A DNA stretch of 61,725 nucleotides, counting the filler, from Hausera hauseri (taxonomy: Eukaryota): assembly GCA_046269625.1 (NCBI GenBank). It is 9 parts of 9 records of this genome, joined end to end, with 100 filler letters (N's around TTAATTAATTAA, not from the genome) between each part and the next. Parts side by side here need not be neighbours in the genome. Positions count along the whole stretch, not along the records: positions 41,704 to 50,189 come from JBJURY010626552.1; 8 more parts are not named here. One strand, given 5' to 3'. The translations under genes and the position numbers were made by a program. Positions 1-50,289 of the stretch are shown piece after piece (the stretch's first letter is position 1; every line of letters starts with the position of its first letter). Under the pieces are notes generated by a model. That model worked only from the letters and a program-made list of their open reading frames with translations, was not told the DNA's origin and did no database searches.

Positions 1-1324
1 TAATTCATCTTCAGATCATTGTCATTGCTCACGAGACAAGTGCATTGGTGCTCCAATTTCATCCTCGGCATATCCACCAGCCCGCTAGGACTGACAGTTC
101 AATGAACGAACGAACCAACAAACCAATCAACCAACTAATTAACGAACTAACTAATTAACTAACTAAATTATTCCTCACGTCTTGTATCCAAATTTTGATC
201 ATGTCCTCCTACTACACAACAACTCAGGATGAACAAAACAAATACATTTGGAAAACCGACACAACAAACAGAACATGATACAACAGATACCAAACGAGCA
301 GAACGACAAAACAGCTAGAATAACGCGCTCATCGAAGGACTGACCACCTTGTAATCTACATCATTTAATCGTTACATGCCGCAAATGTCTAACAGCTGCA
401 AATGTCGTAACAGCTGCAAATGTCGTATGACTGTAGGCATTTCAGCATCAACTTTGCCTACTTAATTTTTTATAGTTAGCATTTTCACAGCTTTGCTTTC
501 AGTTATGCAGTAATGTTTCTAGAATACGGTTTCTAAATGTGTCTTGGAATTAACGAGTCTGTTTATCTCAGGTATTTAATTATTATTAAAGTGGATTATC
601 GTACGACATCAAACAACTTCCATTAATGTTCCTCTTTCCTTAGTTTGGTTTGGTTATTGATCTCCTCATCGTCGAGCGTCAGCCTTTGTGATGAGCCCTG
701 AGCAGGGCCGTAGTCCTAAAAAGGACTACAGGAGTAGTTTCGCTGAGCATTCCTTCTGTCCCAGTGGAGTATAGCAGGGTGGACCAAGGTCTTCCAGGCT
801 TGAGTGCTATGCTTGGCGTCCTGTGAGTGATCCACTCCTCAACATGGGGACTGTGGGCGATCCTTCTAATGTTGGCCAGAATTGCTTCTGTTTCCAGGAC
901 GGACCACGCGGAGGTGTTAGAAGGTCTTGGCCAGTATGTTGGTTCCTGGCCCTGACGAGATTGCGAAGCGATCTCAGTTCTCACCGTCCCTACACATGGT
1001 AAAAGGAAAAGCTAGTTGAAGTAGGTCTTGCACAAGTCTGTGCATGAGGCCATAGTGAAGACAGTCGCCTTGTTCACACAGCGTACGACGGTAAAACCCG
1101 GTTTGCGTTGTGCAACCGCTTAATTGCGACAGGAGCCCCATTGTTAACGCTATGGGCAGCGCAAGTAGAGATTAAAAGAGCAGTCGAACTGGCTATATAT
1201 ATATATATTCTCTATAGTGACACGGTTGCTTGTGGTAATGTGTCGAATCTTATACCTCAGTATTCTTCTTTAACAGAACATTAAAAAATAAAAATAGCAC
1301 CACGCGCTGCACAACCACTCTTAC

Positions 1325-6600: not shown

Positions 6601-6859
6601 TCTGTTTCAGATAAACGTTAAATAAAACTTTATTCTCAATTTGAAATATCCAAAGTGAGTTATTTCCATGAGAGATGGTAACTTGTCACGATGAAAAACT
6701 CATGGTGCTACTTCGCAATAGAAGTTTTATACAGCAGGGATATGTTAGTGAAATGAATGACAGCCTCAAAGATTGTATTCAGTAAATTGTCGTAGAGGCA
6801 GGAATGAGATGGAAGCCAAAAATGAGATATAAAGATAAGTGTATTATCAATGGAGAATT

Positions 6860-13800: not shown

Positions 13801-14299
13801 TCAGGTTTGAGCCTGTCAAGAGTCAAGAGACATCTGGGTTCTGCACCACCGTGAAGCACAGAAGTATTAATTACCACTGTGAAACCTAAAGTAGTTACCN
13901 NNNNNNNNNNNNNNNNNNNNNNNNNNNNNNNNNNNNNNNNNNNTTAATTAATTAANNNNNNNNNNNNNNNNNNNNNNNNNNNNNNNNNNNNNNNNNNNNA
14001 TTGTTGAGGAAAACGGATAGGGATAAGGGATGTGGCGCAGCGGGAGCGGGCACGCTCGGTTCCCCAACCAGAGAATCTCTTGCACTGAGACCAAATTGAT
14101 AGAAAGTAATGTAATTTCTTGAATAGGTATGAATCATAGACGAATTGTAAGAAGTATAAAAATCATTTAGGAATGTGAATAATAGAATGTCGGTAGTGAA
14201 ATCATCATGATTACCTTTTAATAATGGAAATAATGACAATGATCTCGCCAACTTCTGAATAACTGTGATTGATGATTGATTGGAACCAAATGGAGAGAT

Positions 14300-16250
14300 G
14301 AATTGATTTATTCCAATAGACCCAAGAACCTGGGAAGGTGGTGATTGAATCTGAGTTGAAGAATTCGATGAATTGTCTGTATGGGTCAATGCAGCAGCAG
14401 AAGTGAGAATAGTATTTACCCCATGAATAATAGTTGTCTGGGATTTGGAAAGTTTTAGAAGCATTGGTCGAGAAATTTTGATGAAACATTTCAAAGGAGA
14501 TTGCATAATTCCAAAGGAATACAGATATTGCCTTTGACAAAGCAGATTAAATGACTTTTGCATCCAAGGATAAAGAGTGTCGAACAGTCGTCCATAACTC
14601 ATGGACCACTGATACGAATTTTTCGACAATCTCGATGGCCATCGTTTCATGACCATTCCTTTTATTAATGCCAAACACATTACGAATTCGCTTTCGGGCA
14701 CCATTGATACATCGGGTACAGTAAACAGATTATTCAAACGTTCTCCAACGGAACTTAATAAATGTAAATAAATGTTCAATTGTGATTCACTTTTGCATGC
14801 TGCTACAAAATGTGAGAACGTTTCCTCATCAAGCAAACTACATGGATGTTTAATAAACACGATACGTTGTGTCCATATAATGGCTTTCATAACAGTAATA
14901 TCTTGATTCCATTTCATTATACAGGCATTGAGGATATGCTGACGACAATAATTGGCGGAATTGTGTTTGAAAAAAATGCAAAACACAACAAAATCAGACA
15001 ATTCTGGATTGTCACTGTCATAAAAAAATTGAAGATATCCGAGAGTCCATTGATTAAGCAACCAGACTAGACCACCGACCAGCTGAACACTTTCATAGCA
15101 TTGTACATAGAATCCCAGACCACGTAACGTAAAGTAAAACAGTCTTATAATATCATCACAATAGTTAAGATCAACTTCAAATGAATAAAGAAATTTATCA
15201 AAGTTATTCTCCATTTCATTAGCACAATTAATCAACAAATTTTGGTAATGCTTAACGATATGATCAGAATCATCAATATTATTCGACTCCATCATAATTT
15301 TAAGTTGTTCACGGCTATGTTCATAAATAAGTCGAAGATAAAAAAAATTCACATGTTTGGCGTAAATCAGTCGAATTTGCGTTATTGGATCATTCGTTAT
15401 GTTGAATATAACATGGCCGACAATTGACGCAATCCAATGTAGATCTTCAAGGAGCTTCTCCAGAAGTAACAATCTTGAATGGAGATGATGATTCAGGTGT
15501 CTTAGCGAATCGGGAGGACATTGTAAGCCAGAAAGTCCACAGGCATACAAGACCCCTTCAAATGCCTTTTCATCGTCCTCCTCCAAATTGAAATCCAAAT
15601 CGTCGTCGTCCGATTCGACAATAACAATACCGCATTCAGCAGTTACATTTCGAAATCCATCCTGTGATGCCAAATGGGAACTTACAAAATGCTGAAGCAG
15701 TTTCCGATGGCATTGCTGTGAAATACGACTTAGTTCATGAAAAATCATTGTTTCCCATTCGGATCTGGACATAAAATTGAGATCGATTCCCGATGACAAT
15801 TTAATGGAATATTGCAGAATTTCTTCATAATTCATAAACGACACAAATCTTGAAAGAACTCTTTCGGTAGTTTCCATGTAAATTGTATTAGATTTCGAAA
15901 TGTTTTCAGAGGCTGCTCCATCAATACACTTCACACAGAAAGAGGCATAGAATTTAATAAACCGTCCCATTTTATCAACAACAAAACAGGCATATTCATT
16001 AGGAACATTTCGGGAGAAATTTTTAATTGCACTCAGCTCAATTTCCTCGTTATTCACCTCAATTGTGAGACCATCAATCCGTATACTACTATTTAAATGT
16101 TCCTGCAGTTGGTAAATAATATCAGCCAGTAGAGGCAATTTGTAGTCATAGAGATCCTTGGTTATCGTCCACTGATAATTTGACGAATTACCGTTCCTGT
16201 CAAAATAATTGCACATAATGTCAATAAATCCAAAGCTGAAATCAATCTGA
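14300..16250 (-). CDS. XPO4: Exportin-4-like segment (C-terminal half of the 1444-aa ORF)
   Basis: HFVSSHLASQDGFRNVTA...EEDDEKAFEGVLYACG...LLEDLHWIASIVGHVI resembles exportin-4 (HLAAPDGTRNLTA...EDDRDQFSDQLASVG...LYEDIHWLILVTGY). Boundaries are approximate. Confidence 0.7.
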
Positions 16251-16259
16251 GAAAATTGG

Positions 16260-19200
16260 TAGCAATTTCTGATATGTTCCGAATCCAAAAATAGACTATC
16301 ACTAAACTTAATATCTTTAAACTGGGCACTTAAATCTAAAGCAATATCGTCGAGCTTCCGTTGGGTTCGAATAATTATGCTCCGATGAGGAAGATCGGTT
16401 ATGAACTTGGGAAATACTTTACCAAGGTAAAAAATGATGTAGAAATTCGGTTCCCATCTGTCTTCAAACATGATCTTTTTCAAAAGCTCAGACATATGGT
16501 GATGAGCTTCACTCAGTTTGACGAAATCGATAACGAAATTCGTGTAGTCATTGATTAGTTCTTTGCAAACATCGACACCCTGTTCCCAATCTTCCTTTTC
16601 AAAGTGCTTTAAACTATCTTCAAGTAACTTAGCCTTCAGCTGATAAGGAGCATAACCCATTTCCGTTTCGTTTTTCGCTTTGGTATGTATAAGCATCAAT
16701 TTGAACAGATACCGTCCAATAATATCGGATCGGCCCATTTCTTTGTAAAATTTTCGTAAATTATTAATAACAATCATTCCATTAATGGGAGAATTATTAC
16801 TAAGATGAAGTGAACATTCCTCAATATTATTCATCTGAATGATAATATTTTTCACCAACTGAGCATCTTTCTGAAACTGATTATTGCTATTCAAAACTTG
16901 TTTCAAAGCCCTTGTCATTTCCTCACAATAACTTGAATCAGCCTTTTCCATAGCCTGATCAATTTGCGTAATTAATTCAGTTCGTTTATTGTTCGGATCA
17001 AGATGAACAATGTCAAACATACATTCGACTGCCAAAGGTCGAATACGATAGTTTTGGATCGTTGTCATTTTTGCAAAGATTGTGAAAAATGTTTGAGAAA
17101 AGTTATTCTTCAGAACATCGAGATCGTGCCATATTTCTGTAATACGCAATGCACCGTGCAGTCGAACATCTCCATTGTATCGCCGTGCATTTTCCATGAT
17201 TCGAAGTGCTGCGTAACCAGGTAATGAATCTAATTTTAGCCACGGTTGAATTATGATCGTGCAGATTGTTTCAACTTCTTTAATGACTAATTTTATCTGT
17301 AAATTTTCTGATGGATGGCAACAACACAAACGTGCTTGGTTGGCCTTTTTAAGATGAATCAAATTCCGTAAGTAGTATGGTTTAATTATAACAGCATGTA
17401 GTTGAGACAACGTGTTCAGAAACTGATTACTCTGTGAAAACAACATCTCAATCCATGGTTGATTCATATACTTAGAAAACGGAGAAAGAACAGAAACCAT
17501 ATACGATGACTGTCTCGTTAAACTATCGGCTAATGACGACATTTCCTCATCTTCGCAGGTTGAATCGGGAAAGACCGGTCGTACCTGTACGTTATTAATG
17601 AGACAAAATAATTCGAACACCAAATCATAATTATTCGTCATTCGTTGAGCCTTACAAAAAAGACAACTGTCCGTTTGGTCCTCGATGACCTTCTCCCATA
17701 ATTTTGCATTCATATGGGATAGACCGGTCAATACGACCGTGATTAGAATCATTAATGGCTTATGTAAAAGTTTCGAAGATGCCTCGTCTCTTGATAGAAA
17801 ATCGAAAATATTGCAAACAAACTCGATACAACTCCGCAACAGATTTTGTTCAATTAGCAATTCATAAATCATTTCATCAGCGTATTCTCGACTGGACGTT
17901 AGCCATGACCTTTCATGGATCTGAATAAACTCTAGCATTTTTTCACAGATGTTATCCATTAAATGATCTAAATCCAGATCACGGCCTTGAAAAATCTCCA
18001 AATCTGGGTTATTTCGATTTAATTGATACCGAAACAAATCGATAATATTTTTTGTTGTTTCTTCCAAAATAATTCGCCGACAAACACGATCAAGAAAAAT
18101 ACTCGATTTCATAGTGTCCATTATCAAATCAGATTTTGCCAATGGGTTCAAATCACTCGATGCTTTCAATAGATTGTTCACCAAACTAGCCATTCCATCT
18201 ATTTGACAAACTGGCAACAAAGCATGAATGATTGGACCAGCCTTTTTAAGAACCATTCGCCGTAGAATTGCATTTCCTTTTGTCAACTCGTTTGAACTGG
18301 CTGTGTTCTAATTTCTCTAAATAATTGTCCGTGAAAATGTTGAAATCATTTGATTTGTCAAACCCAGCTGTAATCTGTTGCTCAGAATTTTGAAATGATT
18401 TGACGACAATTTTTATGAACCAATCTGACGCATGCATGTAGTTCAGATCCTTTTTCGTATTTCGTTCGGTAAGCTCTTTGAGAATTTGTTCATGAACATT
18501 GAAATGCATCGTTTCATAAATGAAACGATTCAATTGTGCCTCGTAGTCTGGTAAATTCTTTACGGCATTGAACATTTCTTCCAGTAATGAAAAAATATTT
18601 TTCCCCAAATACGATGTTTTCGTAAGCCTTTGCAATAATTCCAAACTGGCCTCCAATATTTTTAATGCAAACTTTTCAACTTGTTAACATCGATATTTTT
18701 GATGATATTTCCTTTTTTTCCAAATATTGAATCAATTTCCTGTCAACCCCATTGCAACAAATTCCAGCCAGTAATTCATCAAACGTATATTCATTCGAAC
18801 ATAACAGAGTCTGGATATAAAGAACATTCCTGTATTTAGATGCTTTCGGAGGCCTTCTACCAACGGTATCATTCGTTTCCACGCTCCCTTCATTCGTTTG
18901 AGCAAGATAGTCACCCGTTTTGATTTTTGCTTCATCCGTCTTAAAAACTGTCAATTCATATGACTTTTCGAGATCCGTATTGCTGACGATCACATTCGAC
19001 TAGTTTTTGGGAAACAATTTCAAATATGCAACACCGAAATTCTGACTTTTGTTGTTAAGAGATTTGTGATGAATCAGAAATCGAAGGTGTGTCGATGAGG
19101 GAAACTCTTCCAGTTGGTTATACAATGAAATGCAAAATGTCTCACTCCATTTTGGTTTGGAATTGTGATAGTAGATTGTAGATTTGTATTCTTTGAATTC

Positions 19201-19751: not shown

Positions 19752-20527
19752 TATTTCAAATTTGTATTTATATCAAATCCAATTTATCAATTTTTTAATT
19801 CATTTTACTACCATAGTAGTTATTATATTAGTCTATCGACCGACTGCGCATTACCTCGATTGAACTCGCTGACTCATAGATTTCTACTGCTGTTCATTTC
19901 CTTTCCCATCATGATTCATTGCGGCAAATTGATCAGGACAGATTGTATTTGATTTTTTTAGTGGGTTACATACATTAATTGGAGTGGATTTTGATGGATG
20001 ATTTTTGTGATAAACAATTTTCTTTGGTACATAACTGTAGAATTGTTTTTCTTTATATATTGGCAATTGATTGGGTAGTTTTGATTTGCTTCACCTGGTC
20101 AAATTTGGGGTTAACTTTTTGATACTGTTATGCAAATTTATTGCAATGATTTTTTACAGATATAATTAACTGAATGACTTGATTTTGTTTAACAACAATT
20201 ATGTATGATTATATAAATCGCTATTAAATATTTCTAATTATCATTCTACATTTGATCGACGATCTGAATATCATGGGCATAAACAAGGTCAGGGTAATTT
20301 GCTGATGAAAAATTGACATTGCACGNNNNNNNNNNNNNNNNNNNNNNNNNNNNNNNNNNNNNNNNNNNNTTAATTAATTAANNNNNNNNNNNNNNNNNNN
20401 NNNNNNNNNNNNNNNNNNNNNNNNNAGCCTATTGCGTCAGAAGAAGTGGCGCCATTCGTCCTAGGCTGTCTTAACCGATTCATTTTTTCGTTAAGGTCTG
20501 TTGGTGAATTTTGATTGTCTTAATTGG

Positions 20528-21028
20528 TTACTGGGTTGTCTCCAAGTTATAGCTGTGGTAGGGTTTTATCCTAACAATGCGTGTATAGCTTCCGTCAGAG
20601 TAATACTTCAATTCTGTAGCTTCAGCCCGACATACTGGACACGTTGTTTTCCCGTTGTCGAGTGTCCATTTCTCTAGACAGTCTCCGCAATATTTGTGAC
20701 GGCAGTTATTGTTATCTAGTATTACATATCCTTGTCTCAAATTTGCATCACATACGGGACATCCACTATCTTCTTTATCCCAATCTTCTCTATCTAAATC
20801 GACCTGAATAATCAGTTTGATGGGTTCAAATACAAGGCCATCTCCGTCTTGGTATAAGTATCCGTGAATTACCTTCTGTTTAAGGTTTATTGAACTTTTA
20901 CGCGGGTCACAATATACCTGAATCAGGGTCCAGTCCTCTATGAAATCCTTATCTAGATCAGGAATCCTTCCTTCTATTTTATATTTCTGATATTGTTTCT
21001 TCAGCAATATTCGGATTTGCTTGTCCAC
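20528..21028 (-). CDS. C3HC4 RING-finger protein (putative E3 ligase), retroelement-associated
   Basis: CPVC-x14-CRHKYCGDC-x12-CPVC. Confidence 0.85.
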   Translation of the reverse strand: MDKQIRILLKKQYQKYKIEGRIPDLDKDFIEDWTLIQVYCDPRKSSINLKQKVIHGYLYQDGDGLVFEPIKLIIQVDLDREDWDKEDSGCPVCDANLRQGYVILDNNNCRHKYCGDCLEKWTLDNGKTTCPVCRAEATELKYYSDGSYTRIVRIKPYHSYNLETTQ

Positions 21029-21168
21029 GGGAACTATTATCTTCCCTGTCCTTTTTGATCGAAAAATTGACGTAAGGTAGGTTCCAAGTTTAGTATTTTC
21101 CTATACATAGGTGTTTTCAAATACCTCTCTAGCCGGGGCAAGTTTGATGAAAAACATTGCTTTCTTTA

Positions 21169-21447
21169 TTATCTTTTACTGTAATATTCGGTAGTTATCA
21201 ACATTCTGGGAAAATCTTGGACTGTTTTATAGTGTACGTCTTCTTTATTTCTTTTTCCTATTAGGGCATTGATTTCCGTTATTATGGGATTCCTAATTCC
21301 CTTTTTTAACGGTTCTATATTCTGAGAAGTACTTGGTTGATTTTGTTGGTTTCCTGCCTTTTTTCCTTCATCTGTCTTATGCTTTTTGAATAAATAATTG
21401 TAGATGGATAATGTTTTCCTAGGTTGTGGTTCCTCTTCCAATTTCAT
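21169..21447 (-). CDS. Hypothetical basic protein, possibly a fragment of a longer disrupted ORF
   Basis: Co-oriented and tightly packed between the exonuclease and RING ORFs, with the same A-rich coding bias. Confidence 0.35.
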   Translation of the reverse strand: MKLEEEPQPRKTLSIYNYLFKKHKTDEGKKAGNQQNQPSTSQNIEPLKKGIRNPIITEINALIGKRNKEDVHYKTVQDFPRMLITTEYYSKR

Positions 21448-21480
21448 CTTTTTAATTATTGTTTCTGGCCTTGTTTTTTT

Positions 21481-22362
21481 TCATTGTTCTTCTGGAGACC
21501 TTGATGTACCTTGCAACGTCTTCTTTTCCTCTCCGATTGTCCGTAATCCCGTTTTGCCTTCTGGTTTTGGTTCTGGTACTAAGATTTTTATACTATGATT
21601 GTCTGCTGATTGAACGGTTTGAATTGGGGAATAGGGTTTTATGTTTCTTCTATATTTACCATCTATTCGTTCAGGGTTTATGGAGCTACGTAAATTGTAT
21701 ACGGGATTTTTAGGGGTCCATTCATGTTCCCATTTTAACGTTATATAAATTTCTTGTAAATATTGAGATCGTTGGCTAGCCGTCAGAAGTCTTGGAATTT
21801 TACTTGGATTGTCGTTCATTGCTTCGACGGTTATTTTAATGAAGGCTTCTGGCGCGGTTGGTCGGTTTTTTCCTTGCACGGTTTTCTTCATTCGTTCTTG
21901 GACTACTGGATGAGTGGCTATTTCTCTAAGTCCGGCAATATTTGCATCGGATATCCCTAATAGCCCGATTTTTCTTTTGACGTTGTATCCTGCTATCATA
22001 CATCCGTAAAGGCGATGGTCTAGTTCCGAACGGACTTGTAGAATATCTTTTCCATTTATCAATTGATCTTTTCTTATACCGGTCACTTCCGCATGTGATT
22101 CCTGGACATGTTTCCGAGGGTTTATGATGGTTGAGTATAATTCAGTCCCATCTCTTTCTCGAATAGATACCTCGATCGGTATTCCATATCCATCGTCTCC
22201 TCTACCATAGTTTGTAGCCAGGATCCTTATGTTCCGACCGTCTTGGACCAACCTATACGATTGCAGATGTTCATCTTTTTCTGCCTCTGTTGGAGTTTGT
22301 TCGAATTGTAGAACTGGCAAGCCTAAGTTGCAGCTCTCTTTATAGGTCACTTCGAACATCAA
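21481..22362 (-). CDS. DEDDh (REX4/ISG20-like) exonuclease-fold protein with catalytic residues apparently lost
   Basis: EVSIRERDGTELYSTIINP...HAEVTGIRKDQLINGKDILQVRSEL...GCMIAGYNV matches the REX4/ISG20 core (RVSIVN..G..VYD.YVKP...TAVSGI.PE.L..G......V...L.G.ILVGH). Confidence 0.7.
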   Translation of the reverse strand: MMFEVTYKESCNLGLPVLQFEQTPTEAEKDEHLQSYRLVQDGRNIRILATNYGRGDDGYGIPIEVSIRERDGTELYSTIINPRKHVQESHAEVTGIRKDQLINGKDILQVRSELDHRLYGCMIAGYNVKRKIGLLGISDANIAGLREIATHPVVQERMKKTVQGKNRPTAPEAFIKITVEAMNDNPSKIPRLLTASQRSQYLQEIYITLKWEHEWTPKNPVYNLRSSINPERIDGKYRRNIKPYSPIQTVQSADNHSIKILVPEPKPEGKTGLRTIGEEKKTLQGTSRSPEEQ

Positions 22363-22427
22363 TTTAACAGGTTAGGCGGCTACTCGAAATTCTAATCCAT
22401 AGTCAATAGTTTCTAAGCCTTTTCCGC

Positions 22428-22808
22428 TTATTTTAAACGTGCTAAATCGGTATTGGCACCCTTCATTACAGTCCCATTGTTGGTTTTTATTTTGTAGTAA
22501 ACTTCACCATCTGCTAGATGGCTAAATATGTCTTCTATTTGGGTGACTTTACTCTGAATCATTTCTTTAAGTTCATATGGTCTGGCTTGATTGTTCTCAT
22601 GCATCGCATGTAAGAAAACTGTGCGGTTCTCTACGGTGATGCCTTTTAAGTCGTTGGGTATTTTATTTACTTTTCGGTATTTAACATGTGTTTCGGTCCT
22701 TAACGCGTCGTTTATTCTTCTGTATATGTCCTTTGATTTGGGGATATGAATGGTTCTGTATCTCTGTAGGAATTCGTCGATTCTAGGTCGACTGCTCGTA
22801 CTTACCAT
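22428..22808 (-). CDS. Hypothetical protein preceded by a strong splice acceptor
   Basis: 126-aa ORF. The minus strand reads TTGTTTTGTATTTTCTTTCAG|A ATG. Confidence 0.5.
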   Translation of the reverse strand: MVSTSSRPRIDEFLQRYRTIHIPKSKDIYRRINDALRTETHVKYRKVNKIPNDLKGITVENRTVFLHAMHENNQARPYELKEMIQSKVTQIEDIFSHLADGEVYYKIKTNNGTVMKGANTDLARLK

Positions 22809-22910
22809 TCTGAAAGAAAATACAAAACAAGGGTCAATCCTGAAACAAAGTATTGTTCGAAACTTGAACCAATTCTTTGTTTGATGGTGAAATAACCCTA
22901 TCTGTAGTTG

Positions 22911-23403
22911 TCAGGCTATTCCATCATTGATTCTGTTCTGTGGTATCATCACTCTTAGTTCCCTCTCGGTGATTTTATGACACTTAATACAACAGTTTTT
23001 AGTAATCAATCGACAAAACGCAATTATCATTATGAGAGCAAATACTGATGTTCCAATAATCGATGTTAATGACAACACTGTCCATTTAGTTAAATCTTCT
23101 ATTTTGGCGGTAGTCGTAATCTCATCCTCTGTTTTATCATCTGTCAGTGGTTTCGTTACAACAATCTCGTTCAAGGTTCGTATTGTGAACACTCTACCTT
23201 GTTTGTTCTCTGCACCCATTTGTATTATATAATTTGTTCTGGGTTTCAATCCGATACATTTGATTCGGTAACTGCCTTTTGGCAGTGTTACCTTCTGATT
23301 ATTGTGTAATGTTCGGCAGCTTATTTCTACTTCGTATTTGAGTGTTTCCTCCAAAATGAACGTTATTTCGCGTTGTTGTGCCTGATATTTTACAGGGATT
23401 ATT
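22911..23403 (-). CDS. Fibronectin type III-like domain + transmembrane helix + Cys-rich tail (5'-truncated type I membrane protein)
   Basis: YEVEISC...GLKPRTNYIIQMGAEN resembles the FN3 L.P.T.Y...V.A.N signature. Hydrophobic WTVLSLTSIIGTSVFALIMIIAFC is followed by RLITKNCCIKC. Confidence 0.65.
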
Positions 23404-25956
23404 CGCTTGTCAAAATTTTATTCATTTCGTCGAATGCTTTTTGTTCCACTTCTGTCCATCTCCACTTAGTTCCTTTTTTGAGTAAGCGATATAGTGGTGC
23501 GTTAATTTTTGAATTATCTGGTACGTAAGTGGCGTAATATCTACATAGGCCTAATCAACTCCTTTTGATTCTGTGGTTCCATACAATCGGATTTTTTATT
23601 TAGCAGAGATTTATCCGGTTTTGATCCTCCTTCTCCGACTATGTTTCCAAGGTACGATACTGCGTTCTGTGCCAATTTACATTTCTTTGGATTTAGTTTC
23701 AGTCCTGCTTGTTCTAATCTCATGAGTGTATTCTCAATATCTTTTAAGTGCTCTTCTTCTGTTTTTGATGCTATCATCACGTCGTCTAGGTATGCGAATG
23801 CATGATCAAGTACCATGAGCATCTTATTCCTCATTGTAGTAAAAATAGCTGGTCCTGTGGTGATGCCGAAAGGCAAAACATAAAATTCGTATACGCCATC
23901 GTGTGTTTTGAATGCCGTCTTATATCGATTTTCTTCTTCGATTTCCACTTGCCAGTATCCCGATTGTAAGTCGAGAGTGGTAAACCATTTTGCCCCTGAA
24001 AGTCTATCTAATGCCTCCTTTACTAATGATAGTGGAAACGAGTCTTTCATCATCGGCGTGTTCAATACCCGATAATCTATACAAAATTAATGTTTCGTGG
24101 TTCCTTTCTTTTTAACCATCAGTATGGGTGAGTACTATGATCGGTAACTTGGCCGAATTTTGTCGGCCTTTAACATTTGCTCTACTTCTTTAGTTATCTC
24201 CGGTCTCAATGAGTGAGGAGGCGGATACCACTTGGGTATTTTCTGTTCTTCTAGGTCGATTTCGTCATTTAAGCCCGGTTTCTTCCTCAATGGAATTGTT
24301 AATCTTAGAGCCTTTGCTCTACCTATGTCTTCTTCATTTTGCGCTATTATCGAGCGGAATTTACACAATAGTTCATAGAATTTGCAATACACTTTCGGAG
24401 AGAATTTGGTTTCAATATGAGGCGACAATTCAGCACACTTGTATGGTTCTGCTCTATTGTTTCTGCCGATACTCTGCAAGTGTGACCCAGAGTAGTGTTG
24501 GCGTGCAATCTTACGGGAATCGGTGCATTGTTCACTAATCTGATGGGTATTCGTCCCGTCACTACTCTACATAAAATGTTGCTAAACATGAGGTTTGGAT
24601 CAATATTGTCTTGAGGCTCAAAGTTTACTGGTAGATCATCATCTTGTGCTAAAATTATTATCTCGGTTCTGGGCGGAATGTTTTCATCTACTGGGATCCA
24701 TACTTCACCTGATTTTCTTTCCTTTATTACCTTTATCCCTTTTATTGGTTATAGTTCACTTAATTTTCCATTATACACATCGATTGCCATACCTCGTATC
24801 TGTTTCAATATATCGCAACCTAGTACTACATCGTTTGTCAACTGATTTATTATTGCAAATTTGTGTTGAAGTGCTTGACCCTTCATATAAACAGTAGGAG
24901 TCCATTTAAATTTTGGCTTCGATACTTGTCCGAATGCTCCTACGCTCCCTGGGTCCGATGATGCGGGCTGACAGCTGGTCTCGCAACGTGGTTGGTATAG
25001 ATTCATATTCTATAAACGATTTTTCTGATCCGGTATCGATTAATGCATACACGTCCCAATCTTCTGTGTGTATTTTAGTGAAAGGTCTCCCTTCTGCTAC
25101 TGTTCCGTAGCAATTTGACACTATCTTTGACCGTTTTATAGTACAGACTCTATATCCATTTATCCTTATTTCTGGCGATAAAATGATATCTTGCCTTAAT
25201 TGTCTTAATTCTCCATTCGGATGCAAGTCGTTGTTTGTTATTTCAGTAACGCGGCTATCAATGAACGCTTCCTGGGGTAGTGAACTCGAGATCGAACACA
25301 TTTTTGGGTTTTCTCAAATTGCTGATTTTGATTCTATGTGACGCGGTATTCATTTTGAGTACAATATTCCGTGGTGGTTTTCTGTTGGTCTCTGGTTGAT
25401 CACATTCATTTTCCGGAGTACTGCATATTGTTTTGTCTTTTCATAAGGATCCTCATAATTAATAGGCTTTTGATAGATTTCTGACCTACATGATACGATT
25501 GATTTGTGGTCGCAATATTCATATATTGGTGCTGTTGGAGGCATGATTGGCAATAGCGCATTAATCACTGAGTACATCTTGTGCATCCTCATTATAGAAC
25601 TCGCTTCTCCTTCCTTAGGCTTGTCGTTGTCTGAATCATTCGTCCGTGTTATTGTCTTCCTGTTTTTGCGTTTATACAGAATCGAAGGCTTCCCTCGTCG
25701 TTTGCGATTATAATACCCGACGTGACGTTCTACGTCATTTTCCATCGATTTTCTTCGTATGCTTTAAGCATCTTCCCAAAGGATGTGATGATCGCGGTCA
25801 AAATTTTCCAAGAGAATCCTGTCAATGTGAATATTTCATATCCGTTTATAATGGCTTGGATTACTGCTTTAAATAGTTAGACTAAAAAGTAGATGGCTAA
25901 AAATCCAGATGCGGCTTGTCCAAAAATTAAAAATCTTCCCCACATTTTATACAGTA
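23404..25956 (-). mobile_element. Ty3/Gypsy-type retroelement copy 1: glycoprotein C-terminus - linker - aspartic protease - RT; breaks off before RNase H; frameshifted
   Basis: Protease ALIDTGSE (~25040). RT KDSFPL..VKEALDRLSGAKWFTTLDLQSGYWQV, LPFGI, YLDD, LKLNPKKC. The end of the contig encodes FLIFGQAASGFLAI, identical to copy 2. Confidence 0.9.
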
Positions 25957-30194: not shown

Positions 30195-31780
30195 ATGTCA
30201 CAGACGTCATCTCAGTTAATGTCTCGTTCGGAACGAAATGAGCAAGTAGGATTTTTATTATTTATATTATTATTTTTATTGTTATTAAGGGATATCGTAA
30301 TAATTTCACTGTGTCGAATGCAGTTAATGGTCAATATGTGCGATTATTTTTGAATTGTAATGATGATCATGCCAGAGCCTTACAGTATCGCTTTCCAGAA
30401 CCAATAAATTATTTGATTGTGCCACCGGAAGGAGCAACATTTCGCCATTTCATGGCTGTGATGAAATTCGATGAAAATATTGATTTATGTAATTACATTG
30501 GTAATTTTATACGGCTTGTTTTATTGTATAAATTTTATATGAAGGTGGTGGAAGATACGTCTTCCTCTGGTTTCCACCATCTTCATTTTCTTTTTTATTT
30601 GCGCAACCCTATGCGGTTGCGTCGTTTTCGTGTTCTTTTTGGATTTAATTTTCTTATCCCGTTTAGGAGTGATATCTATGGGGTTTATAAATATCATAAT
30701 AAGGATATCACTCCTAATGTTTTTTCTATGCAAATCGGTAGTCCCCCTATAGATATTAACAAAGAAAACACCTCACGTAAGGCCCTATATCGTATGTTTG
30801 ACGATGCTCCCTCGGTCGGAGAAGCTATGTTTATAATGAAAGAAGGTGACCGAGCGGAGTACGTCACAAGGCATAAAATGTTACAATCATACGTTAACAG
30901 TAAATTTAAACCTTAAATTAATGTTAATGAGCAATATGTCTTCACTCTTTCACCTATCGATTTCCGCCTTGATAAAGGTGTTAATACCGCGTTACTATTT
31001 GGAAGTAGTAACATAGGGAAGACATGTTATGCCATGTCTCATGGGAAGAACCCATTAATTTTACATTCATTGCATGACACTCCTTCTGAGTGGTCATCTG
31101 AATATGATATAATTATTTTTGACGATGTCGGGTTTAGCGATGTCTGCCCGGACATTTTCTTAGCAATAGTGCAATGTAACCACGTACACGACAATAGGTC
31201 AATACGTGGGTTATATAAAAGTGTTGTGGTACCATCTTCGGTACGGGTTATTTTTACATATAATTCGCAGTCATCCTTTTGGCCTCGAAGGATAGACTTA
31301 TCCCAAAAGGAGGCGTGTATGAAAAGGTGTCTCCTGTACGATTTAGGAGATTTTATGCTCTACCGTACAGGGGAGAGTCGAGACCGCTTTATTCAAGAAA
31401 ATCGAGTTGATTTTCGTCGAATAGCTGATGAGTTTGTGGAGCCACCTATTATTCCTGTTGTCTTGCCTGTAAATGATTCTCTTCCATCTGGAATTCCTGT
31501 TGTTATACCACCACATGAATCTTTAACTGTTACTATTGATGATGATAGTGAAGGGGACTACCGAGATGATAGTTTATTTACTTCTCCTATTGATGTACAA
31601 AATGTAAGTAATTATCGCCCTGTTTATCACAGGGAAGTTTTATCGCCGTTTCACATGTGTAGTGAACGGTGTTATGTGCCACCGCATGTTGATTATCTTA
31701 ACACCGGTAGCAGTGCCGGTAGTGTAAATACTGCACCTGCGTATGTACGGTATCGCGATATCGATGTATGCTGCCGATAG
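30195..31780 (+). CDS. rep: CRESS-DNA-virus-like Rep (HUH endonuclease + SF3 helicase), spliced, with one in-frame TAA
   Basis: Exon 30195-30245 and intron 30246-30289. Motif I FTVSN, motif II HHLHFLF, motif III YKYHNKD. In-frame TAA at 30914-30916. Walker A GSSNIGKT, Walker B IIIFDD, motif C VIFTYN, Arg-finger-like ACMKRC. Confidence 0.85.
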
Positions 31781-41600: not shown

Positions 41601-41716
41601 TCTNNNNNNNNNNNNNNNNNNNNNNNNNNNNNNNNNNNNNNNNNNNNTTAATTAATTAANNNNNNNNNNNNNNNNNNNNNNNNNNNNNNNNNNNNNNNNN
41701 NNNAGCCAACAGCGAC

Positions 41717-43147
41717 ATGTTTGGTAACTTCGTAGATGGTGACGACCAGAAACGGGACAGACACTCAGCGTTCTACAAAAAAATTGGTTTTTCTAGAGAC
41801 ACAAGCAGTTTCTACAAACGTGGCCCGGCATTCCTGTCTGCATTCTACAAAAGAGGTGCTAATCCCTTGAGTTCATTTTACAAACGCGCACCTTTACATA
41901 ATCAAGTTTCCTTCTACAAGAGGGATTTCACAAAGTCAAAACGCTCGGTAAATAGGCCTAACTTGAGTTCGTTTTACAAGCGCACACCGTACAACAGATT
42001 TGGAGCGTTATTTGATGAAAACACTCAAGACGACGATTCGATAGATTTCGATAAAAAAGGATACAGCCTCAGCTCATTTTACAAACGCGGCCTAGACAAT
42101 GATGTAAGTTCCTTCTACAAACGGGACAGAGACAGAATGTCTTCGTTTTACAAAAGAATACCCGATGATTTCAGTCTGCCTGATCTAGATAACAACTTGC
42201 CAACACGCGATCTTGACGAGGATACGACCGTCGAAAGGATGGCTTCCAGAAAGGGTTTTAATTCATTTTACAAGCGAGCATTGGCTGCTTTTTATAAGAG
42301 AAGTCCTTGGTACAACAACGAAGGAACAAGTTCTTTCTACAGGAAACGTGGACATGACGTGGGAAACAGCGCTTTCTACAAACGAAACTACGACTCGGCG
42401 CCTTTTGCAAGCAGGTATACTTCCGGATTATCCAGTTTCTACAAACGAGGACTAGAAGATAATGGAGATGTTTACGGATTATCTAGCTTTTACAAACGAG
42501 ATTTTGGTAACAGGGGGCTTGGTTATGGGATGTCTGGTTTCTATAAACGAGGCACCGATAGAATATCCAGTTTCTACAAAAGACACTCGGATGACATAGA
42601 CAATGCAGACGAACAAGATTTGGGAGACAGGATATTTAGCCTTGACACTGTCCCCGACATTGATTCTGCCAACGAAGAAAGTTCATCATTCCCAAAAGAA
42701 CTTCACAAGAGAAGCAGCTCTGCTGATACTCAAAGCAAAATTTCACACATAAGAAATCGTCGCAGTACAAGCAGTTTTTACAAAAGGGACTGGAACAATC
42801 AAGACAGTTTCTATAAGCGAAACCCCAAAGGCTCTTCCTTAAACAGTTTTTACAAACGGGCCCCACAGAACTACCAGCTAAGTAGTTTTTACAAGCGAGC
42901 TCCAAAAGACTATTCAGTCAGCGGTTTCTACAAGAGAGTCCCGCATGATTACTCAATCAGCAATTTTTATAAAAGAGCTAGAGATACAGCAAGCAGCTTC
43001 TACAAACGGCGAATGAACGATCTAAGCAAGTTTTATAAAAGAGCACCAAATTATGTAAGCAATTTTTATAAACGATTCGCAAATGATTTAAACTCATTCT
43101 ATAAAAGATACCCCGAAGATCTTCATGGGTTTTATAAAAGATCATGA
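41717..43147 (+). CDS. Multi-copy neuropeptide precursor (28 peptides ending -FY, non-amidated); pedal-peptide/orcokinin-like; N-terminus probably missing
   Basis: 28 FY motifs each followed by KR/KK/RKR, with acidic spacers and no Gly before the dibasic sites. No signal peptide; the ORF starts 13 nt from the contig edge. Confidence 0.9.
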   Translation: MFGNFVDGDDQKRDRHSAFYKKIGFSRDTSSFYKRGPAFLSAFYKRGANPLSSFYKRAPLHNQVSFYKRDFTKSKRSVNRPNLSSFYKRTPYNRFGALFDENTQDDDSIDFDKKGYSLSSFYKRGLDNDVSSFYKRDRDRMSSFYKRIPDDFSLPDLDNNLPTRDLDEDTTVERMASRKGFNSFYKRALAAFYKRSPWYNNEGTSSFYRKRGHDVGNSAFYKRNYDSAPFASRYTSGLSSFYKRGLEDNGDVYGLSSFYKRDFGNRGLGYGMSGFYKRGTDRISSFYKRHSDDIDNADEQDLGDRIFSLDTVPDIDSANEESSSFPKELHKRSSSADTQSKISHIRNRRSTSSFYKRDWNNQDSFYKRNPKGSSLNSFYKRAPQNYQLSSFYKRAPKDYSVSGFYKRVPHDYSISNFYKRARDTASSFYKRRMNDLSKFYKRAPNYVSNFYKRFANDLNSFYKRYPEDLHGFYKRS

Positions 43148-45514
43148 TAACGAATTAGAAGAGGCTTACAAAACGCTAGAAAAAGCAATACTGGAAAAAC
43201 CTGTAATATGCAATCAACTAAAGGAATGGTCCGGATTAATATTGAGACGAGTCAACTAACAGGAGACCGAATAAAAGAGTTCCCAGAAAGTGAACCAATA
43301 GTGAAGCAACAATCGGCAGAAACTTCCCGAAATTTAGACACTGATGGCAGAAGTAGATATTCGAACGCATTTCAATGAATTGAGACAGTTAGAATTTACG
43401 AGTAAAACCGATGAGTTGACTGTCCTAAATGAAATATATAAAATGATCATAGAAACGGACTTTAAGCTGAAGCGAAATTTGACATGCGAACTCTACTCAA
43501 GAATTAGAAGGATTCGCCGAATAGGAGTCCAACATTTAACGGAAAAGCCATTAGACAAGATTACAACGCAAGAACTGAAAATGTTACGGATTTGTTCAGA
43601 TTATGAGAACTCTTGTATATGCGTTAAAGTTTTTGCTAAATCCAACTAATTGGATTCTAGGAATGGATTAATGGCACGCTAAATTAACAGAAATAATGGA
43701 AGACCACCGACTTGTCGTTGAAGAAACCAGCTTCGTAAAGAAATTAATTGCAGAGATCGATCCAGATTATAAAATCTTAGAATAGATAAGTAATTTTGTT
43801 CTATTGTTAGTAGAAATGGCCGAAATGATTGATGAAAAGATGAGACAGCTGCAGATTCGAATACATCAAGTTTGGAAAATGCAAATTCGCACTGATCAGT
43901 GAAAAGCAGCAATAGATGAATTAACCCAAGAATAGGAAATTTGTCGAAATAAATATTCTCTTACGGAGACAGAAATAGCCGACAAATCACAATTTTTTTA
44001 AAAATGGAAAAGAGAAGTAGCCTCTGAATTAACTAATTATCAAGAAAAAGGATTGATCCAGGCCGACGAATTATGCCAGTTGCTAACGTTATTGCATCAA
44101 ACTTGCGGGAATGGACGTTGTTTCCGAACGACACAAAGGGATAAAATGCAACAAAAATTATGCGAACTAAGAGAATCTTTACGTGATACGAACGCAGTCC
44201 GACCAGCGGATATTCCAGCAATCGATTACAGGCAGCCAGAAAATGAAAACGATCCAGAATGGGATGAGTACTTAGATGCAATGGTTGCCGAGAATCCGAA
44301 AACTCCTGTACATTTGTAAGAAATGGGGACGTGACCACAAGATCGGAGGTTCAGTGTGAAGATGCTTCTGGATTTGGCCCAGACTGAAAAAGATTTAATT
44401 AAATTAATTAACGTAAATATCACCGAAAATAAGTTAAGACAGTTAGTTCCTACCATGACTAAATTATCCAGTGAATGTACAATTTATAGCGCCATGCCGA
44501 AACTTTTAATAATGGCATATGCTAAAATCTTAAGGGCTAAACCCAAAGAGATGATTAAAGTAAGGATATCGCCTGAATGGATAGACGAAAAAAAATGCGA
44601 GTTAATTGCACGTTCCTCTGTAAGAGACGTAAAACAGTGGCTAATATGCAATGGTGGCGGAAACGAATCGAATTAGACTCTACTTTAGGTGTAGAATATT
44701 AGACTAACTGGAACACTTAATAGACGTTGGGATTATCCCAGACGAAACAAATCGTATAGTGGCGGTAGTTGCAACTGAGGAAACAAAAGAAGCCGCACGA
44801 AAGGCTAAAACTGATCAGTGTGTAGAGCTTATTAAGGGAGTTTGAGACATAGCAATGTATTTTGAACACTTGCAAACAGATGAAGACAAAGAACAGTACG
44901 AGAAAAATTTAGCACCACCTAGTGAAGCCATATAACATACGGCTAAACGGAAACGTCCTGTCGGTAAACAACATAAAATACGAGAAGACATCGATTATAA
45001 TGGAGATTTGATTAGAGAATTAACACAGATGTTCATACCTGCCTCCAGTGCTGAGAACAAAGAGTTAAATGAACTCACGAAAAATTTAATACGCATAGTA
45101 AATCACTCTAATCTCCGCAGCGATGTACTAGGTGAGAAAGAAAAGGCTGCATATAATGCAGCCAGAACGATGAGAAATTTCCGTTTTAGAATATCAAAAA
45201 GCACTCTAACTGATGATATTCGGATCGAGAAAATTATGGTAGAGAATATTATAAGAGTAAAGAAAAGTATTGCTATATTTGGCCATTAAAACAAATCCCA
45301 CTCGAGAAAACGAAATTAACAGAGCCACTAGCCTAGCGCGGAAAGCCGCCAGAAAATTACCTTGAGATGTAAATTGGTCGAAGCTATTTGAAAAAGAATA
45401 TCAAAATGGGCCCTCTTCTAGCAAGAGTAATAGTAGGTTCGAAGACATGGTACGAAATTTAACCGGAAATAACCGAGGAAACGAGTTCAACTGGCTAATT
45501 AACTTCGTACTGTG

Positions 45515-47310
45515 ATGATGTTAATAAGGCAAATGGAAGCTGTTACAATATATGACTGTGACAAATTCAAACTTGGCCAAAAATTTTATTAATGGATTTA
45601 GAGATGTGCGAAGATGCAAGACCACATAAATTAGAGACAAATGAGAAAAACTACGTACTGTATCAAGAATGCGAGTAAGTCTCAGATAGAATAGAATGCA
45701 TGCTGCGAAGATCTCGGAGTATCTTCCATTGCGAACTAATCCGCGGACACTCGTCCCTAATTAAGCTAACGACCCTACCGATTCCAATGAACTTAGAACG
45801 CCAGTGTTGTAAGCAAGATAGCAAAACAGGTAGACTACAGTGCTGTGGCATGGAACTTGAAATGCAGCAAGGGAAAATAATCATAGCATTTAAAGTAGCA
45901 GCAGATAAACTAGATATGCATAACGGACACTAACGGTGCAGAATATGATACTTGTAAGCGAATAGAATCAAACATTGTGGTTGTGGATGTCTATGAAACC
46001 GAGATGCGAACGCAAAAAGGGATGTTTTATAGTGATACTAAGCTTTGCACGGGAAACCAAAAGTGCCATATTCAAGACGGTACTTGTGCTTTTAGAAGTT
46101 CAGTAGTAACTTGGGAATCTCCAGCCAAGTCCGATTGCAATTTTATCAGAATTAAAGAATTAAAGTTTAATGAAACGACAGGAAAACGGTATGTTAATAG
46201 TATAGATTCTAACTCGTAAACACGAGAAGACGTAGCTGAGCAACCTACACCTACTATATTAATTTCCGATACTCATGGACTAAAATTTGTGAAAAAGGAC
46301 GTACTCACACGATGAGACGCGGTGATGTATGCGACCAACTATGAAGCATTATTTTTAAAAAAACCGAGATAAATGCCAAAACATTCAAGCTCGAGACTCA
46401 ATATATTTGAATTGAGGATTATCTAAAGAATAGAGATGATCTTCTCTTACAAAGGACAAGTCGGAATAACCGAACTATACCACAAAATGATAACGAACGA
46501 CTGTAAATTTGACTTGGAAGTTATGAGAACTAAACTGGCTTTAATATATGTCAACCCCGATTGAGCATCAATGATAATTCCAATGAAGGAAGGTGTTTTT
46601 GGCCTAGTGATGGGAAAAGTTTTACTGACCTATGAATGCGAAAAAAAGACTTGCGCCTAATGTTGAAGAAAAGAGATGCATACAAGAACTTCCGGTATTG
46701 TTTTAAAATATGCCGAGATTAGTGACACCGATTACTAGAATTTTAGAGGCAAACTCTACTAAACCAACAATTTTGAAGGATTGTAAAATGAGTCTAGGCG
46801 AACCTATGTTTAGACGTAACGAAACTGTGTAAGTCTACCAAACGTAGGTATTATTACTCCACCCATGAAACTAACAGTAACAAACTTAGTAAAAGGAATA
46901 ACCGATGACAAATTTCAAGACATTGCAGCCCAAGGTATTTACAAACCAAAGGAAGTTGAAGCATTTAGACAATTTCTTGCTTTTCCACGCCAGCCTACGC
47001 ATGAACTAAACCGAGCTATGCATACGATATTACAAGATACGCGTTATCAAGCGAAATGGGAATCACTACTTGGCGTTAACCATTACCAAAGAGTAACCAC
47101 AGAAATCTTGTATAAAATTTGGAGAAGATTTTTAATTTTTGGACAAGCCGCATCTGGATTTTTAGCAATTTAATTCAACTGATTAAAGCAGTAATTCAAA
47201 CCATCATCAACGGATAAGATATTTACTTTAACAGGATTCTCGTGTAAAAATCTAACGGCTATTATCGCGCCATTTGGTAAATTCCTAAAAGCTTACGAAG
47301 AAAGTAGATG
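45515..47310 (+). pseudogene. env: Chuvirus-like (gB-type, class III) envelope glycoprotein, fragmented
   Basis: Ordered motifs recalled from chuviral G proteins: AVTIYDC; EC.LRRSRSIFHC; C..QDGTC..RSSVVTWESP...C.F; GLVMGKVLLTYEC; CIQELPV...LVTPITRIL; IAAQGIY...FRQFLAFP; W..FLIFGQAASGFLAI...KAVIQTIING. Confidence 0.7.
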
Positions 47311-47759
47311 GGAAGCGGACGTTGAACAACATGTTGGTTACCACAATCGGAAACGTAAATGGAGACATTTAATTACAAACGGAAGGTCATCAACATGAAA
47401 ACGCGAAGAAATGATTCTGATAATGACGAGCCTAAGAGTGGAGGCGCCGTCTCCGAGATAGACACAAAAACTATTCCGTTATAAAACTACCGTTATGCAT
47501 GTTACCGCCACTTGCGCCTGTATATGAAGATTGTGTGAAATAATCTGAGGTCATATCAAATGGATATCTATGGCAAACCGTTCAGCCTTGAGGATCCTTA
47601 TGAAGGAAGAAAACACTAGTGTATTACGCAAAGTACACAAAGCGAAAAGAACATCTGCTCCATATCGTCGTTCAGCAGTTGACGACCACGGAATACTTTA
47701 CTCACTTAGAATACCCAGGTCGAACGAAGTACGATCAACATTTTCAAGAGACAAGGAAA

Positions 47760-49990
47760 TGCAGACTTAGAAACCAAGAAATGCAATCGCCAGTTAGAAG
47801 TCAGGGAACGGAAATCGTCAGTTGCGTAAACAATGAACTGCATCCAAATGGGGAACTAAGACAGTTAATGGATCAGCCATTTGCAGCCACAGAAGTTAGA
47901 ATTAACGGATATAAAGTATCGATGATTCAACATCCCAAAATAGCACCTAATTACTATGGTACGTTAATCGAAGGTAGACCCTTCGCGAAAATTCAGTTAG
48001 AAGATTGGGAAGTCTACGCACTGATAGACACCGGATCCGAAATATCGCTGAAAAAGCATGACTCAATACCACAGTTTTTACGGAAACAATTATATCCACC
48101 TCCAACAACAGATGCAGGAAGTATGGAGCTTTTGGACAGTCATCAAAAAGTAAATATTGATGGAATCCAAAGATTTACATAATGGAACAATCTTTTCACC
48201 ATGAATTTTCAATAATGAAACAGTTAACGGATGATGTAGTATTAGGGTGTGATCTATTATGACAACCACCCTAAGTAGCCATAGACTTCCATGCAGGAAA
48301 ATTAGTAGAACTCGTTCCCACAAAAGGAGTTAAAACTACTAAAGATAGGAAATTAGGAGAAGTATGGATTCCAGTGGACGAAAACCTTCCACCCAAAATT
48401 GAAATATTAATATATGCTCAGATCCGTCAAGATAAAGACCAGCCAGTATATTTTGAACCAAAAGAACCATTAAACCCAAGCATTGAACTCAGTAATGTAT
48501 TAACAAGAGTATCAGCTGGCTGTGTACCAATCAGAATAGCTAATAACGCTCCGATCCCAATCAAATTGTACGCTAATACCACCTTGGTTCATAGGTATAG
48601 AGTATCATCGATAACTCTTGAAGAAAAACCTTACAAATGCGCCAAATTTCCACCTCATGTCGAAACTAAATTCTCATTGGAATCATACTGCCGCTTTTAC
48701 GAACTACTTTGTCGTTATAGCTTAGTCATCTCTAAGGCCGAAGAATGTATTGGTAGAGCTAAAGTCTTGAGATTAAAAATTCCGCTTAAGAAAGAGCCTG
48801 GTTCAAACGATGAAATTGATCCAGCAGATCAAAAGATGCCGAAATGGCATCCTCCTCCGCACTCGTTAAGGCTCGAGATAAGGAAGGAAATTGAACTCAT
48901 GCGTAAGGCTAACATAATTAGACCGAACTATAGATCTTGAATTTCCACCATACTTATGGTTAAAACGAAGGCTACTGCAAAACATCGATTTTCATCGATT
49001 ATCGAGAGTTAAACACTCTTATGATGAAGGATCCCTTCCCACTACCATCAGTAAAAGAAGCCCTGGATAGACTCGCCGGCGCAAAATGGTTTAGCACACG
49101 GGACTTGGAATCTGGATACTGGCAAGTATTAATAGAGGAAGAAGATCGTTATAAAATCGCATTTAAAACACGCGATGATGTATACGAATTTAACGCTATG
49201 CTATTCGGGATAACTACCGGACCAGCCATTTTTACTCGAATGATGAATAAAATTCTGATGGGATTGGAACACGCGTTTGCGTTCTTGGACGACGTAACGA
49301 TCGCATCCAAAACGGAAGAACACTTAATATATCGAGGACACGCTGATGAGAGTGGAGCAAGCAGGACTGAAATTGAATCCTAAATGTAAATGGGCTCAAA
49401 ATGCAGTATCCTATCTTGAACATATAGTTGGAGAAGGAGGATCAAAACAGGATAAATCATTGCTAAACAAAATATAAGATTGTATGGAACCTCAGAACCA
49501 AAAAGAATTAAGACATTGGTCAGGCTTATGTGGTTATTATGCCACTTATTTACCACACAATTCGAAAATTAATGCGCCCTTGTACCGTTTACTTAAAAAG
49601 GGAATTAAATGGAAATGGACCGACGTCGAACAAAAATCTTTCGATGAAATGAAGAAGGTCTTAACTAGCGAACCTGTTTTAAGATATCCTGATTTTAACT
49701 TACCGTTTATAATTAAAACTGACGCCAGCAAAGGAGGCATTGAATACGAGTTAGCTCAGAAACGAACTACAGCATCCAATCGCTTATGGAGGATGTTCGC
49801 TAAAGAAAGTTGAGAAAAACTATTCTGTTACGGAATTAGAAACGCTAGAAGTGAAGGAAGCTCTACTACACTTTAACATTTATGTCTACGGACAAAAGAT
49901 TATAATTGTTACCGACCACAAAGCTGTTACAACCTTAAAAGGTAGAGGAAATATTCCAACATATAGACTCAACAGATGGATCGAGGAGAA
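47760..49990 (+). pseudogene. pol: pol: aspartic protease, RT, RNase H (frameshifted)
   Basis: ALIDTGSE; KDPFPLPSVKEALDRLAGAKWFST.DLESGYWQV; FLDD; PVLRYPDFNLPFIIKTDASKGGI; EKNYSVTELETL; IIIVTDHKA. Confidence 0.9.
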
Positions 49991-50289
49991 GTAGGATGTG
50001 AGGACTTGGCACCAACCCCCCTGTGATGCTTTCTTTAGTTCACATTTAAAATAATACGGTCCAAATGGAGTATTCACGTATAATTTGTATCCTAATTTTG
50101 CAACAATATCAACCATTGTATTATTCCAAAAATTATTATTGTTGCAGACCACAATGCTTATCTGAAAATGACTAGAATCAAATAATTTCNNNNNNNNNNN
50201 NNNNNNNNNNNNNNNNNNNNNNNNNNNNNNNNNTTAATTAATTAANNNNNNNNNNNNNNNNNNNNNNNNNNNNNNNNNNNNNNNNNNNN

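Follow-up and report, generated by a model that had tools for sequence, protein, structure and literature searches.

Two decayed copies of a retroelement were found in the window, by which we mean the whole 61,725-nucleotide stretch of Hausera hauseri DNA that was analysed, in which contigs are joined by N-linkers. We conclude, with a probability of about 85%, that copy 1 (on the contig at 41704–50189) is a decayed Ty3/gypsy element carrying a chuvirus-G/gB-type envelope gene (env) upstream of protease, reverse transcriptase (RT) and RNase H, that it is likely a distant relative of Burro and of the GAG-ENV-POL errantiviruses, and that it likely once encoded one polyprotein. Copy 2 lies on the contig at 20426–25956, and both copies are dead. 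The env-first gypsy layout itself is already published, and the window element is a distant member of the known Burro-like gB-type GAG-ENV-POL kind. As this headline feature has been described before, the gain from the window copy alone is small. The possible novelty is modest: the long-branched lineage, together with a beta-rich membrane module after the integrase and an RNase T-like ORF, both of which relatives also have. The features are as follows (window coordinates, strand, description and basis).

43144..50189, plus strand: copy 1, decayed repeated element; left edge approximate, right part fading near 50000 (contig depth)
43150..44370, plus strand: broken coding region where relatives have gag/accessory domains (without a Pfam match)
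44371..44768, plus strand: helical region and ubiquitin-like domain, in two frames (profile from relatives)
45509..47290, plus strand: class III (chuvirus-G/herpes-gB-type) envelope gene, full length, broken, with a membrane anchor at its 3' end (PF24664, env profile, phmmer)
47290..47960, plus strand: cytoplasmic tail and hydrophilic linker, coding in the first half (copy-to-copy codon-position mismatches)
47960..48190, plus strand: aspartic protease, DTG at 48027 (sequence; tblastn to relatives)
48190..48690, plus strand: protease-RT spacer, homologous to the spacer of relatives (tblastn)
48690..49700, plus strand: Ty3/gypsy-type RT and connection, broken, FLDD at 49283–49294 (RVT_1)
49700..49990, plus strand: RNase H, broken, no integrase before the contig end (PF17919/PF17917)
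23402..25956, minus strand: copy 2, with env membrane anchor, linker, protease, spacer and RT, ending at the RT connection (blastn, tblastn, Pfam)
22911..23417, minus strand: beta-rich domain (FN3-like, weakly supported) and membrane helix (post-integrase profile; Pfam fn3, E 0.04)
21481..22371, minus strand: RNase T/DEDDh-like exonuclease ORF, likely part of the element (blastp, Atlas, phrog)
20528..21100, minus strand: RING-finger ORF, candidate member of the element (zf-RING_2, E 3e-8)

For the Pfam search the window frames were read singly with stops as X. The frame from 45515 matched Monjiviricetes_fusion (PF24664) above the cut-off (E 3.1e-14). A profile built from 31 natural env domains was matched at 45509–47285 over positions 6–607 of 629 (iE 6e-70), and two further frames added stretches to this match in copy 1. 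As the near-complete coverage of the profile is split across frames, we regard env as full length in span but interrupted by stops and frameshifts. With the window env frame as the query, phmmer returned 52 matches at E≤0.001, although identity to the nearest relatives was only 26–28%. Neither a PDB sequence search with env nor a word-based protein search with a 117-residue env ORF gave a match. The fold evidence comes from a model of the homologue P0002 (mean pLDDT 55.7) and not of the window protein. Herpes gB proteins were its top PDB matches (E 6e-11) and chuvirus-type glycoproteins its top viral matches in BFVD (E 6e-36), both with low TM-scores. The sequence-only reading had proposed a chuvirus-like class III fusogen here, and the PF24664 match, the full-length profile match and the homologue model all agree with that proposal.

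Downstream of env, we observed matches to RVT_1 (PF00078; E 2.7e-18) and, beyond the RT, to RT_RNaseH/RT_RNaseH_2 (E 7.7e-16 and 3.8e-13; PF17917/PF17919, the gypsy-type RNase H). The best PDB matches of the copy 2 RT were the Ty3 RT (4ol8; E 4.7e-40) and Ty3-G Gag-Pol. With gypsy-type RNase H families, Ty3 as the best match and no match to the Pao peptidase, the pol of the window is of the Ty3/gypsy type and not BEL/Pao, and the initial assignment of the RT as Gypsy-type was correct. Anakin, a BEL/Pao element with a chuvirus glycoprotein according to the text of Dezordi 2020 (PMC7642597), has an env of the same Pfam family, PF24664, but differs from the window element in its pol. The protease of copy 2 gave a weak RVP match (Pfam; E 0.0047). 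The protease-RT spacer was 21–30% identical to its counterparts in P0003, P0004, P0053 and P0056 (tblastn); no Pfam match to a dUTPase was obtained between protease and RT, where the Burro counterpart has been called dUTPase-like. A profile from 18 relatives found no integrase in the window. A search of the two window contigs, where copy 1 runs nearly to the contig end and copy 2 appears internally deleted, found no LTRs, and no LTR pair was found within the relatives L001–L003.

The two copies were 73% identical over 47109–47436 and 70% over 47828–49672 of copy 1 (blastn). The env profile matched the env C-terminus in copy 2 (iE 4e-18), which has the env end only because its contig starts there. 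The domain order env-linker-protease-RT is identical in copies 1 and 2. Thus the placement of env before protease and RT, first noticed from the sequence alone, is seen in both copies, and its repetition in a copy of 70–73% identity upholds the claim of a real element as opposed to a one-off mis-join.

We then compared the window element with its relatives. The Pfam scan covered 35 of the 52 phmmer matches (23 + 12), and the protease followed env in the same chain in 9 of the 14 best phmmer matches. One match, P0028, was rejected as an unrelated CAP-Gly protein (Pfam). Querying again with the L001 env region gave 14 long proteins: ten had env, RT and integrase, three had env and protease, and one was a BEL element with env last. 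In 17 relatives from public assemblies a single chain of 2,146–4,844 residues carries env ahead of RT, RNase H and integrase; 15 of these are predicted proteins, on which the single-chain state of the P-numbered relatives rests, and the other two are L001 and L003. L001–L003 were seen as DNA. L001 has one stop-free frame of at least 3,426 codons, env to integrase included, and L003 has one of 2,693 codons running from gag to beyond the integrase. In L002, gag, CCHC, ubiquitin-like and weak Bcl-2-like parts are followed by a stop just before env. Gag/CCHC lies upstream of env in L002, L003 and P0058–P0060, and the accessory domains of the relatives (ubiquitin/SUMO-like, weak Bcl-2 and ankyrin) are those named for Burro. 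The 17 one-chain relatives indicate that Burro-like envelope-first gypsy elements are a wider family than the planarian examples. No relative was present among 102 candidate stretches from viral contigs or among 74 from prokaryote genomes, and at least three were present among the 593 candidate stretches listed from metagenome contigs. NCBI labels one relative a bacterial protein, and these elements are to this extent an annotation trap.

Upstream of env, a profile of the helical and ubiquitin-like segments of 22 relatives matched 44371–44768 (iE 2.5e-8 and 0.0025), and the counterpart of this region in relatives matches Pfam ubiquitin (E 0.0017 for L002 and 4.4e-5 for P0060). A ubiquitin-like domain therefore lies upstream of the window env, as in Burro-like relatives. 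In 43150–45515 gag gave no match to Pfam or to a gag-capsid profile from 16 relatives; this copy is decayed and maybe 5'-truncated. A profile of BCL2-like segments from ten relatives had no match in the window, and many intact relatives also have no such domain.

The question of a single polyprotein was approached by comparing the two copies codon by codon. In the first half of the linker, mismatches between copies 1 and 2 at the three codon positions were 0.24/0.30/0.67, and in the second half they were 0.44/0.34/0.40, without bias. The third-position bias thus covers the env anchor and the first half of the linker, is absent in the second half, and is back in the protease, spacer and RT. The linker of copy 2 has a mean hydropathy of −1.11. 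The protease DTG of copy 1 lies ∼302 codons past the membrane-proximal motif of env; the distance from this motif to the next such protease motif is 130–668 in the 16 relatives in which the pattern was found. In both copies the stretch between env and protease is interrupted, and both are too broken to read through. Of the two copy 2 stops between env and protease, neither coincides with a stop in copy 1. One of the five copy 2 stops examined, near the RT start, falls in the same aligned codon in both copies, but as the triplets differ we read it as separate damage and not as a signal.

The closed frames, the loss of bias in the latter part of the linker, and the stop of L002 between its gag region and env would also suit an element of the same family in which env and pol are separate frames joined by a frameshift, read-through or splicing. 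We consider this arrangement very improbable, because no stop-codon break between env and protease is common to both copies, the coding bias passes from the env anchor into the linker, and the 17 one-chain relatives include two seen as DNA. The codon bias, the unmatched stops and the intact relatives together make a single env-pol ORF likely; the ancestor of the window copies would then have encoded env through pol as one polyprotein. The earlier suggestion of one polyprotein is therefore probable in view of L001, L003 and the lack of a shared stop, although the polyprotein is unreadable in either broken copy.

The features described above are close to those of published elements. Dugesiid planarians carry giant gypsy elements, >25 kb long, named Burro/GYPSM1. 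Their env lies between gag and pol in a continuous reading frame, with a ubiquitin-like domain upstream and a BCL2-like one directly before env, according to the text of Arkhipova and Yushenova 2019 (PMC6431247, which cites Grohme 2018 and Jurka 2007). As described there, they resemble the window element in the gypsy pol, in an env related to mononegavirus-type fusion glycoproteins that is in frame before the protease (the window copies being too broken to read the frame), in the upstream ubiquitin/SUMO-like domain, the protease-RT spacer and the accessory ORFs, and in having many decaying copies. They differ in that the BCL2-like, MATH, BIR and ankyrin domains, gag, integrase and LTRs were not detected in the window fragments. 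The RT of the window is long-branched, and its post-integrase membrane module and RNase T-like ORF find no mention in the Burro text compared here. As the BCL2-like domain was not found, and as the named Burro sequences were compared by description only, we call the element Burro-like and not Burro proper. Burro is merely mentioned in the text of PMC11410931. Troyka (PMC12440569) was considered as a match and rejected, since by its published text it encodes no envelope.

In the text of Chary and Hayashi (eLife 2026, PMC13524379), gB-type env with likeness to Chuviridae glycoproteins is widespread on gypsy pol, and the gB-type GAG-ENV-POL order is reported in Nematoda, Bryozoa and Platyhelminthes (Sacco 2022 is cited therein). 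These errantiviruses share with the window element the class III env, its place before pol and the gypsy POL; they differ in being intact and mostly multi-copy, and the bryozoan env rows are unlike the window env. The env proteins of Smed_errantivirus_1-6 (C1a) share, by eye, a motif series with the relatives of the window element, and we infer that these six Schmidtea env rows are Burro elements. The main text of that paper has no mention of a fused or in-frame env, polyprotein, Burro, exonuclease or fibronectin.

Candidate accessory ORFs were found downstream of pol in copy 2, where the RT connection passes directly into the beta-rich domain and membrane helix at 22911–23417. After the integrase, 15 of the 17 intact relatives have hydrophobic stretches and 7 have a short cysteine motif. 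A profile of eight post-integrase segments, which were selected by a motif chosen after the window was seen, had this ORF as its sole match in the six-frame translation of the window (iE 3.4e-9). Single-seed profiles of the membrane module recruited no other relatives. Because the module follows the integrase in intact relatives, RNase H and integrase were likely lost from copy 2 by an internal deletion. The single-sequence model of this 168-residue membrane ORF was poor (pLDDT 50), and nothing in a fold search with it reached E≤0.001, the third-ranked match being an FN3 domain (E 2.7); the FN3-like label therefore stays weak.

The exonuclease ORF at 21481–22371 matched an ORF downstream of the L001 polyprotein (blastp, E 2e-8) that itself matches PF00929. 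It also scored 0.93 in Atlas to RNase_T clusters and matched phrog_192 (E 2e-4). Its first acidic motif is not evident, and a word-based protein search with it returned nothing. These similarities suggest that the ORF likely belongs to the element. The RING-finger ORF is confirmed as an element part by no relative. Capture of a DEDD exonuclease by rotifer LTR elements is described in the text of Rodriguez 2017 (PMC5408684). The bdelloid Juno and Vesta are likewise gypsy-like elements with a DEDD-family exonuclease ORF after pol, but their ORF3 is RNase D-like (DEDDy) where the present one is RNase T-like, and most of the elements described there are without a true env. We found no published description of the post-integrase membrane module or the exonuclease in Burro-like elements; figures, Repbase entries, and Grohme 2018 with its supplement, may already show them.

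Of all this, only the accessory modules are worth pursuing. If they are conserved and undescribed, they would sharpen the question, raised in the text of PMC6431247, whether such elements are infectious viruses manipulating apoptosis and ubiquitin pathways. Tentatively, and we think this rather doubtful in its full form, the window copies could represent a deep-branching Burro-like lineage, perhaps of a non-dugesiid host. Its members would be complex enveloped retroviruses whose polyprotein is cut into two surface proteins, the class III fusogen ahead of pol and, beyond the integrase, an FN3-like membrane protein that is possibly an attachment factor, with a downstream cassette of RNase T-like exonuclease and RING protein acting against host defences.

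Next, we placed env and RT in phylogenetic trees. The env tree was a quick one of 35 rows with the window env masked, and at least 11 short fragments and near-duplicates were left out. The window env fell among 22 env-first rows, P0003 being the nearest, and ten stand-alone G rows (the Lishi spider virus 1 glycoprotein is one of these) and two pol-then-env rows were set apart with an SH-aLRT of 100. The BEL row P0069, which has env last and matches PF05380/PF18701/PF03564, grouped with the stand-alone G, apart from the window env. In the RT tree (22 rows), the two window copies formed a pair; their long branch (2.11) belonged to an unresolved fan, without a resolved sister among the 20 other rows. 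These rows include neither env-less gypsy outgroups nor named Burro rows, and without such outgroups the tree shows divergence and not membership.

The long RT branch and its unresolved placement, as well as the statement in PMC13524379 that the POL tree does not unite GAG-ENV-POL elements in a single clade, would be expected if an unrelated gypsy lineage had independently captured a chuvirus-like glycoprotein and placed it convergently before pol. This is very improbable, since the window env nests in the env-first polyprotein clade and not with the stand-alone G, and since the ubiquitin-like domain, the post-integrase module and the exonuclease are shared with that clade, which convergence would not give. 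The sequence-only reading had favoured an independent capture and a candidate new lineage with an unusual gene order; that part has to be given up, as the layout is published and env nests among env-first polyproteins. In substance this is the outcome which that reading had named as refuting it: the element is of a described kind with the env-first order, Burro being compared here by description.

Finally, we examined the setting of copy 1 using contigs from one public run, possibly of the source sample. Summed contig depth, which does not equal copy number, was 1.8–5.4 on the adjoining host gene versus 117–49,995 from the 43119 bin on. Altogether 11,215 run contigs were aligned, and 6,209 of these were <90% alike. 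This pattern fits a large, diverged repeat family, the upstream region of the element included. One run contig departs from the window sequence after 43143, so copy 1 may owe its left junction to assembly joining or to a polymorphic insertion. Short contigs, a repeat-rich assembly and this departing contig might be taken to mean that an endogenous chuvirus glycoprotein came to lie beside an ordinary gypsy pol by chance or through chimeric assembly, but such a juxtaposition deserves hardly any credence, because the same order recurs in the 70%-identical second copy and in intact relatives, and run contigs span 47538–47975 and 47910–48375. The flanking genes are eukaryotic in look. The one beside copy 1 at 41704–43147 is presumably a repetitive neuropeptide precursor, with Atlas scores of ≤0.85.

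At the left edge of copy 1, the junction may reflect an insertion that is polymorphic or else a join made during assembly, because one contig of X1, a public sequencing run possibly from the source sample, is identical to the window over 42196-43143 and then departs from it for 160 differing letters. The ORF whose stop codon directly adjoins this edge (41704-43147, + strand) contains dozens of (S/A/G)FYKR repeats and looks like a neuropeptide precursor.

Among the env-matching relatives, the predicted protein P0003 (NCBI HBK71150.1) is a polyprotein of 2,627 aa having the order env-protease-RT-RNase H-integrase. NCBI assigns it to a metagenome-assembled genome of Flavobacteriaceae under the label hypothetical protein, but it is probably animal retroelement DNA inside a bacterial bin.

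In several other relatives (L001, seen as DNA, L001:2-10282; and the predicted proteins P0004, P0008 and P0053), we observed 3-6 protease-like DTG motifs per polyprotein, which flank the RT-integrase on either side. Between env and the main protease, L001 appears to carry a further, second membrane module that is beta-rich. By eye, residues 130-300 of another predicted protein, P0012, N-terminal to env, have the look of a DEDD-type exonuclease; the part preceding env had no Pfam match at E<=0.001. If real, this would place an exonuclease within the polyprotein as well as downstream.

The cassette downstream of the diverged copy 2 contains two further ORFs:

22428-22910, (-) strand, further ORF
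21169-21480, (-) strand, further ORF

Neither matched Pfam, and the former had no PHROG match.

A single frame at 30242-31780 (+) comprises two ORFs with a stop codon between them. We take its HLHF, YxxK and Walker A/B-like motifs to resemble those of a rolling-circle (CRESS-type) Rep. These ORFs gave no Pfam match, no meaningful PDB match and a single weak, unnamed match in PHROGs.

Other long open frames were also observed in the window. One (13952-18307, - strand; 1,451 codons) has two halves, of which one may be similar to a DOCK-family protein and the other to an exportin-like protein. Another (1281-6617, - strand; 1,778 codons) is repetitive, Ser/Thr/Glu-rich and mucin-like, and its opposite strand has an open frame of 688 codons.
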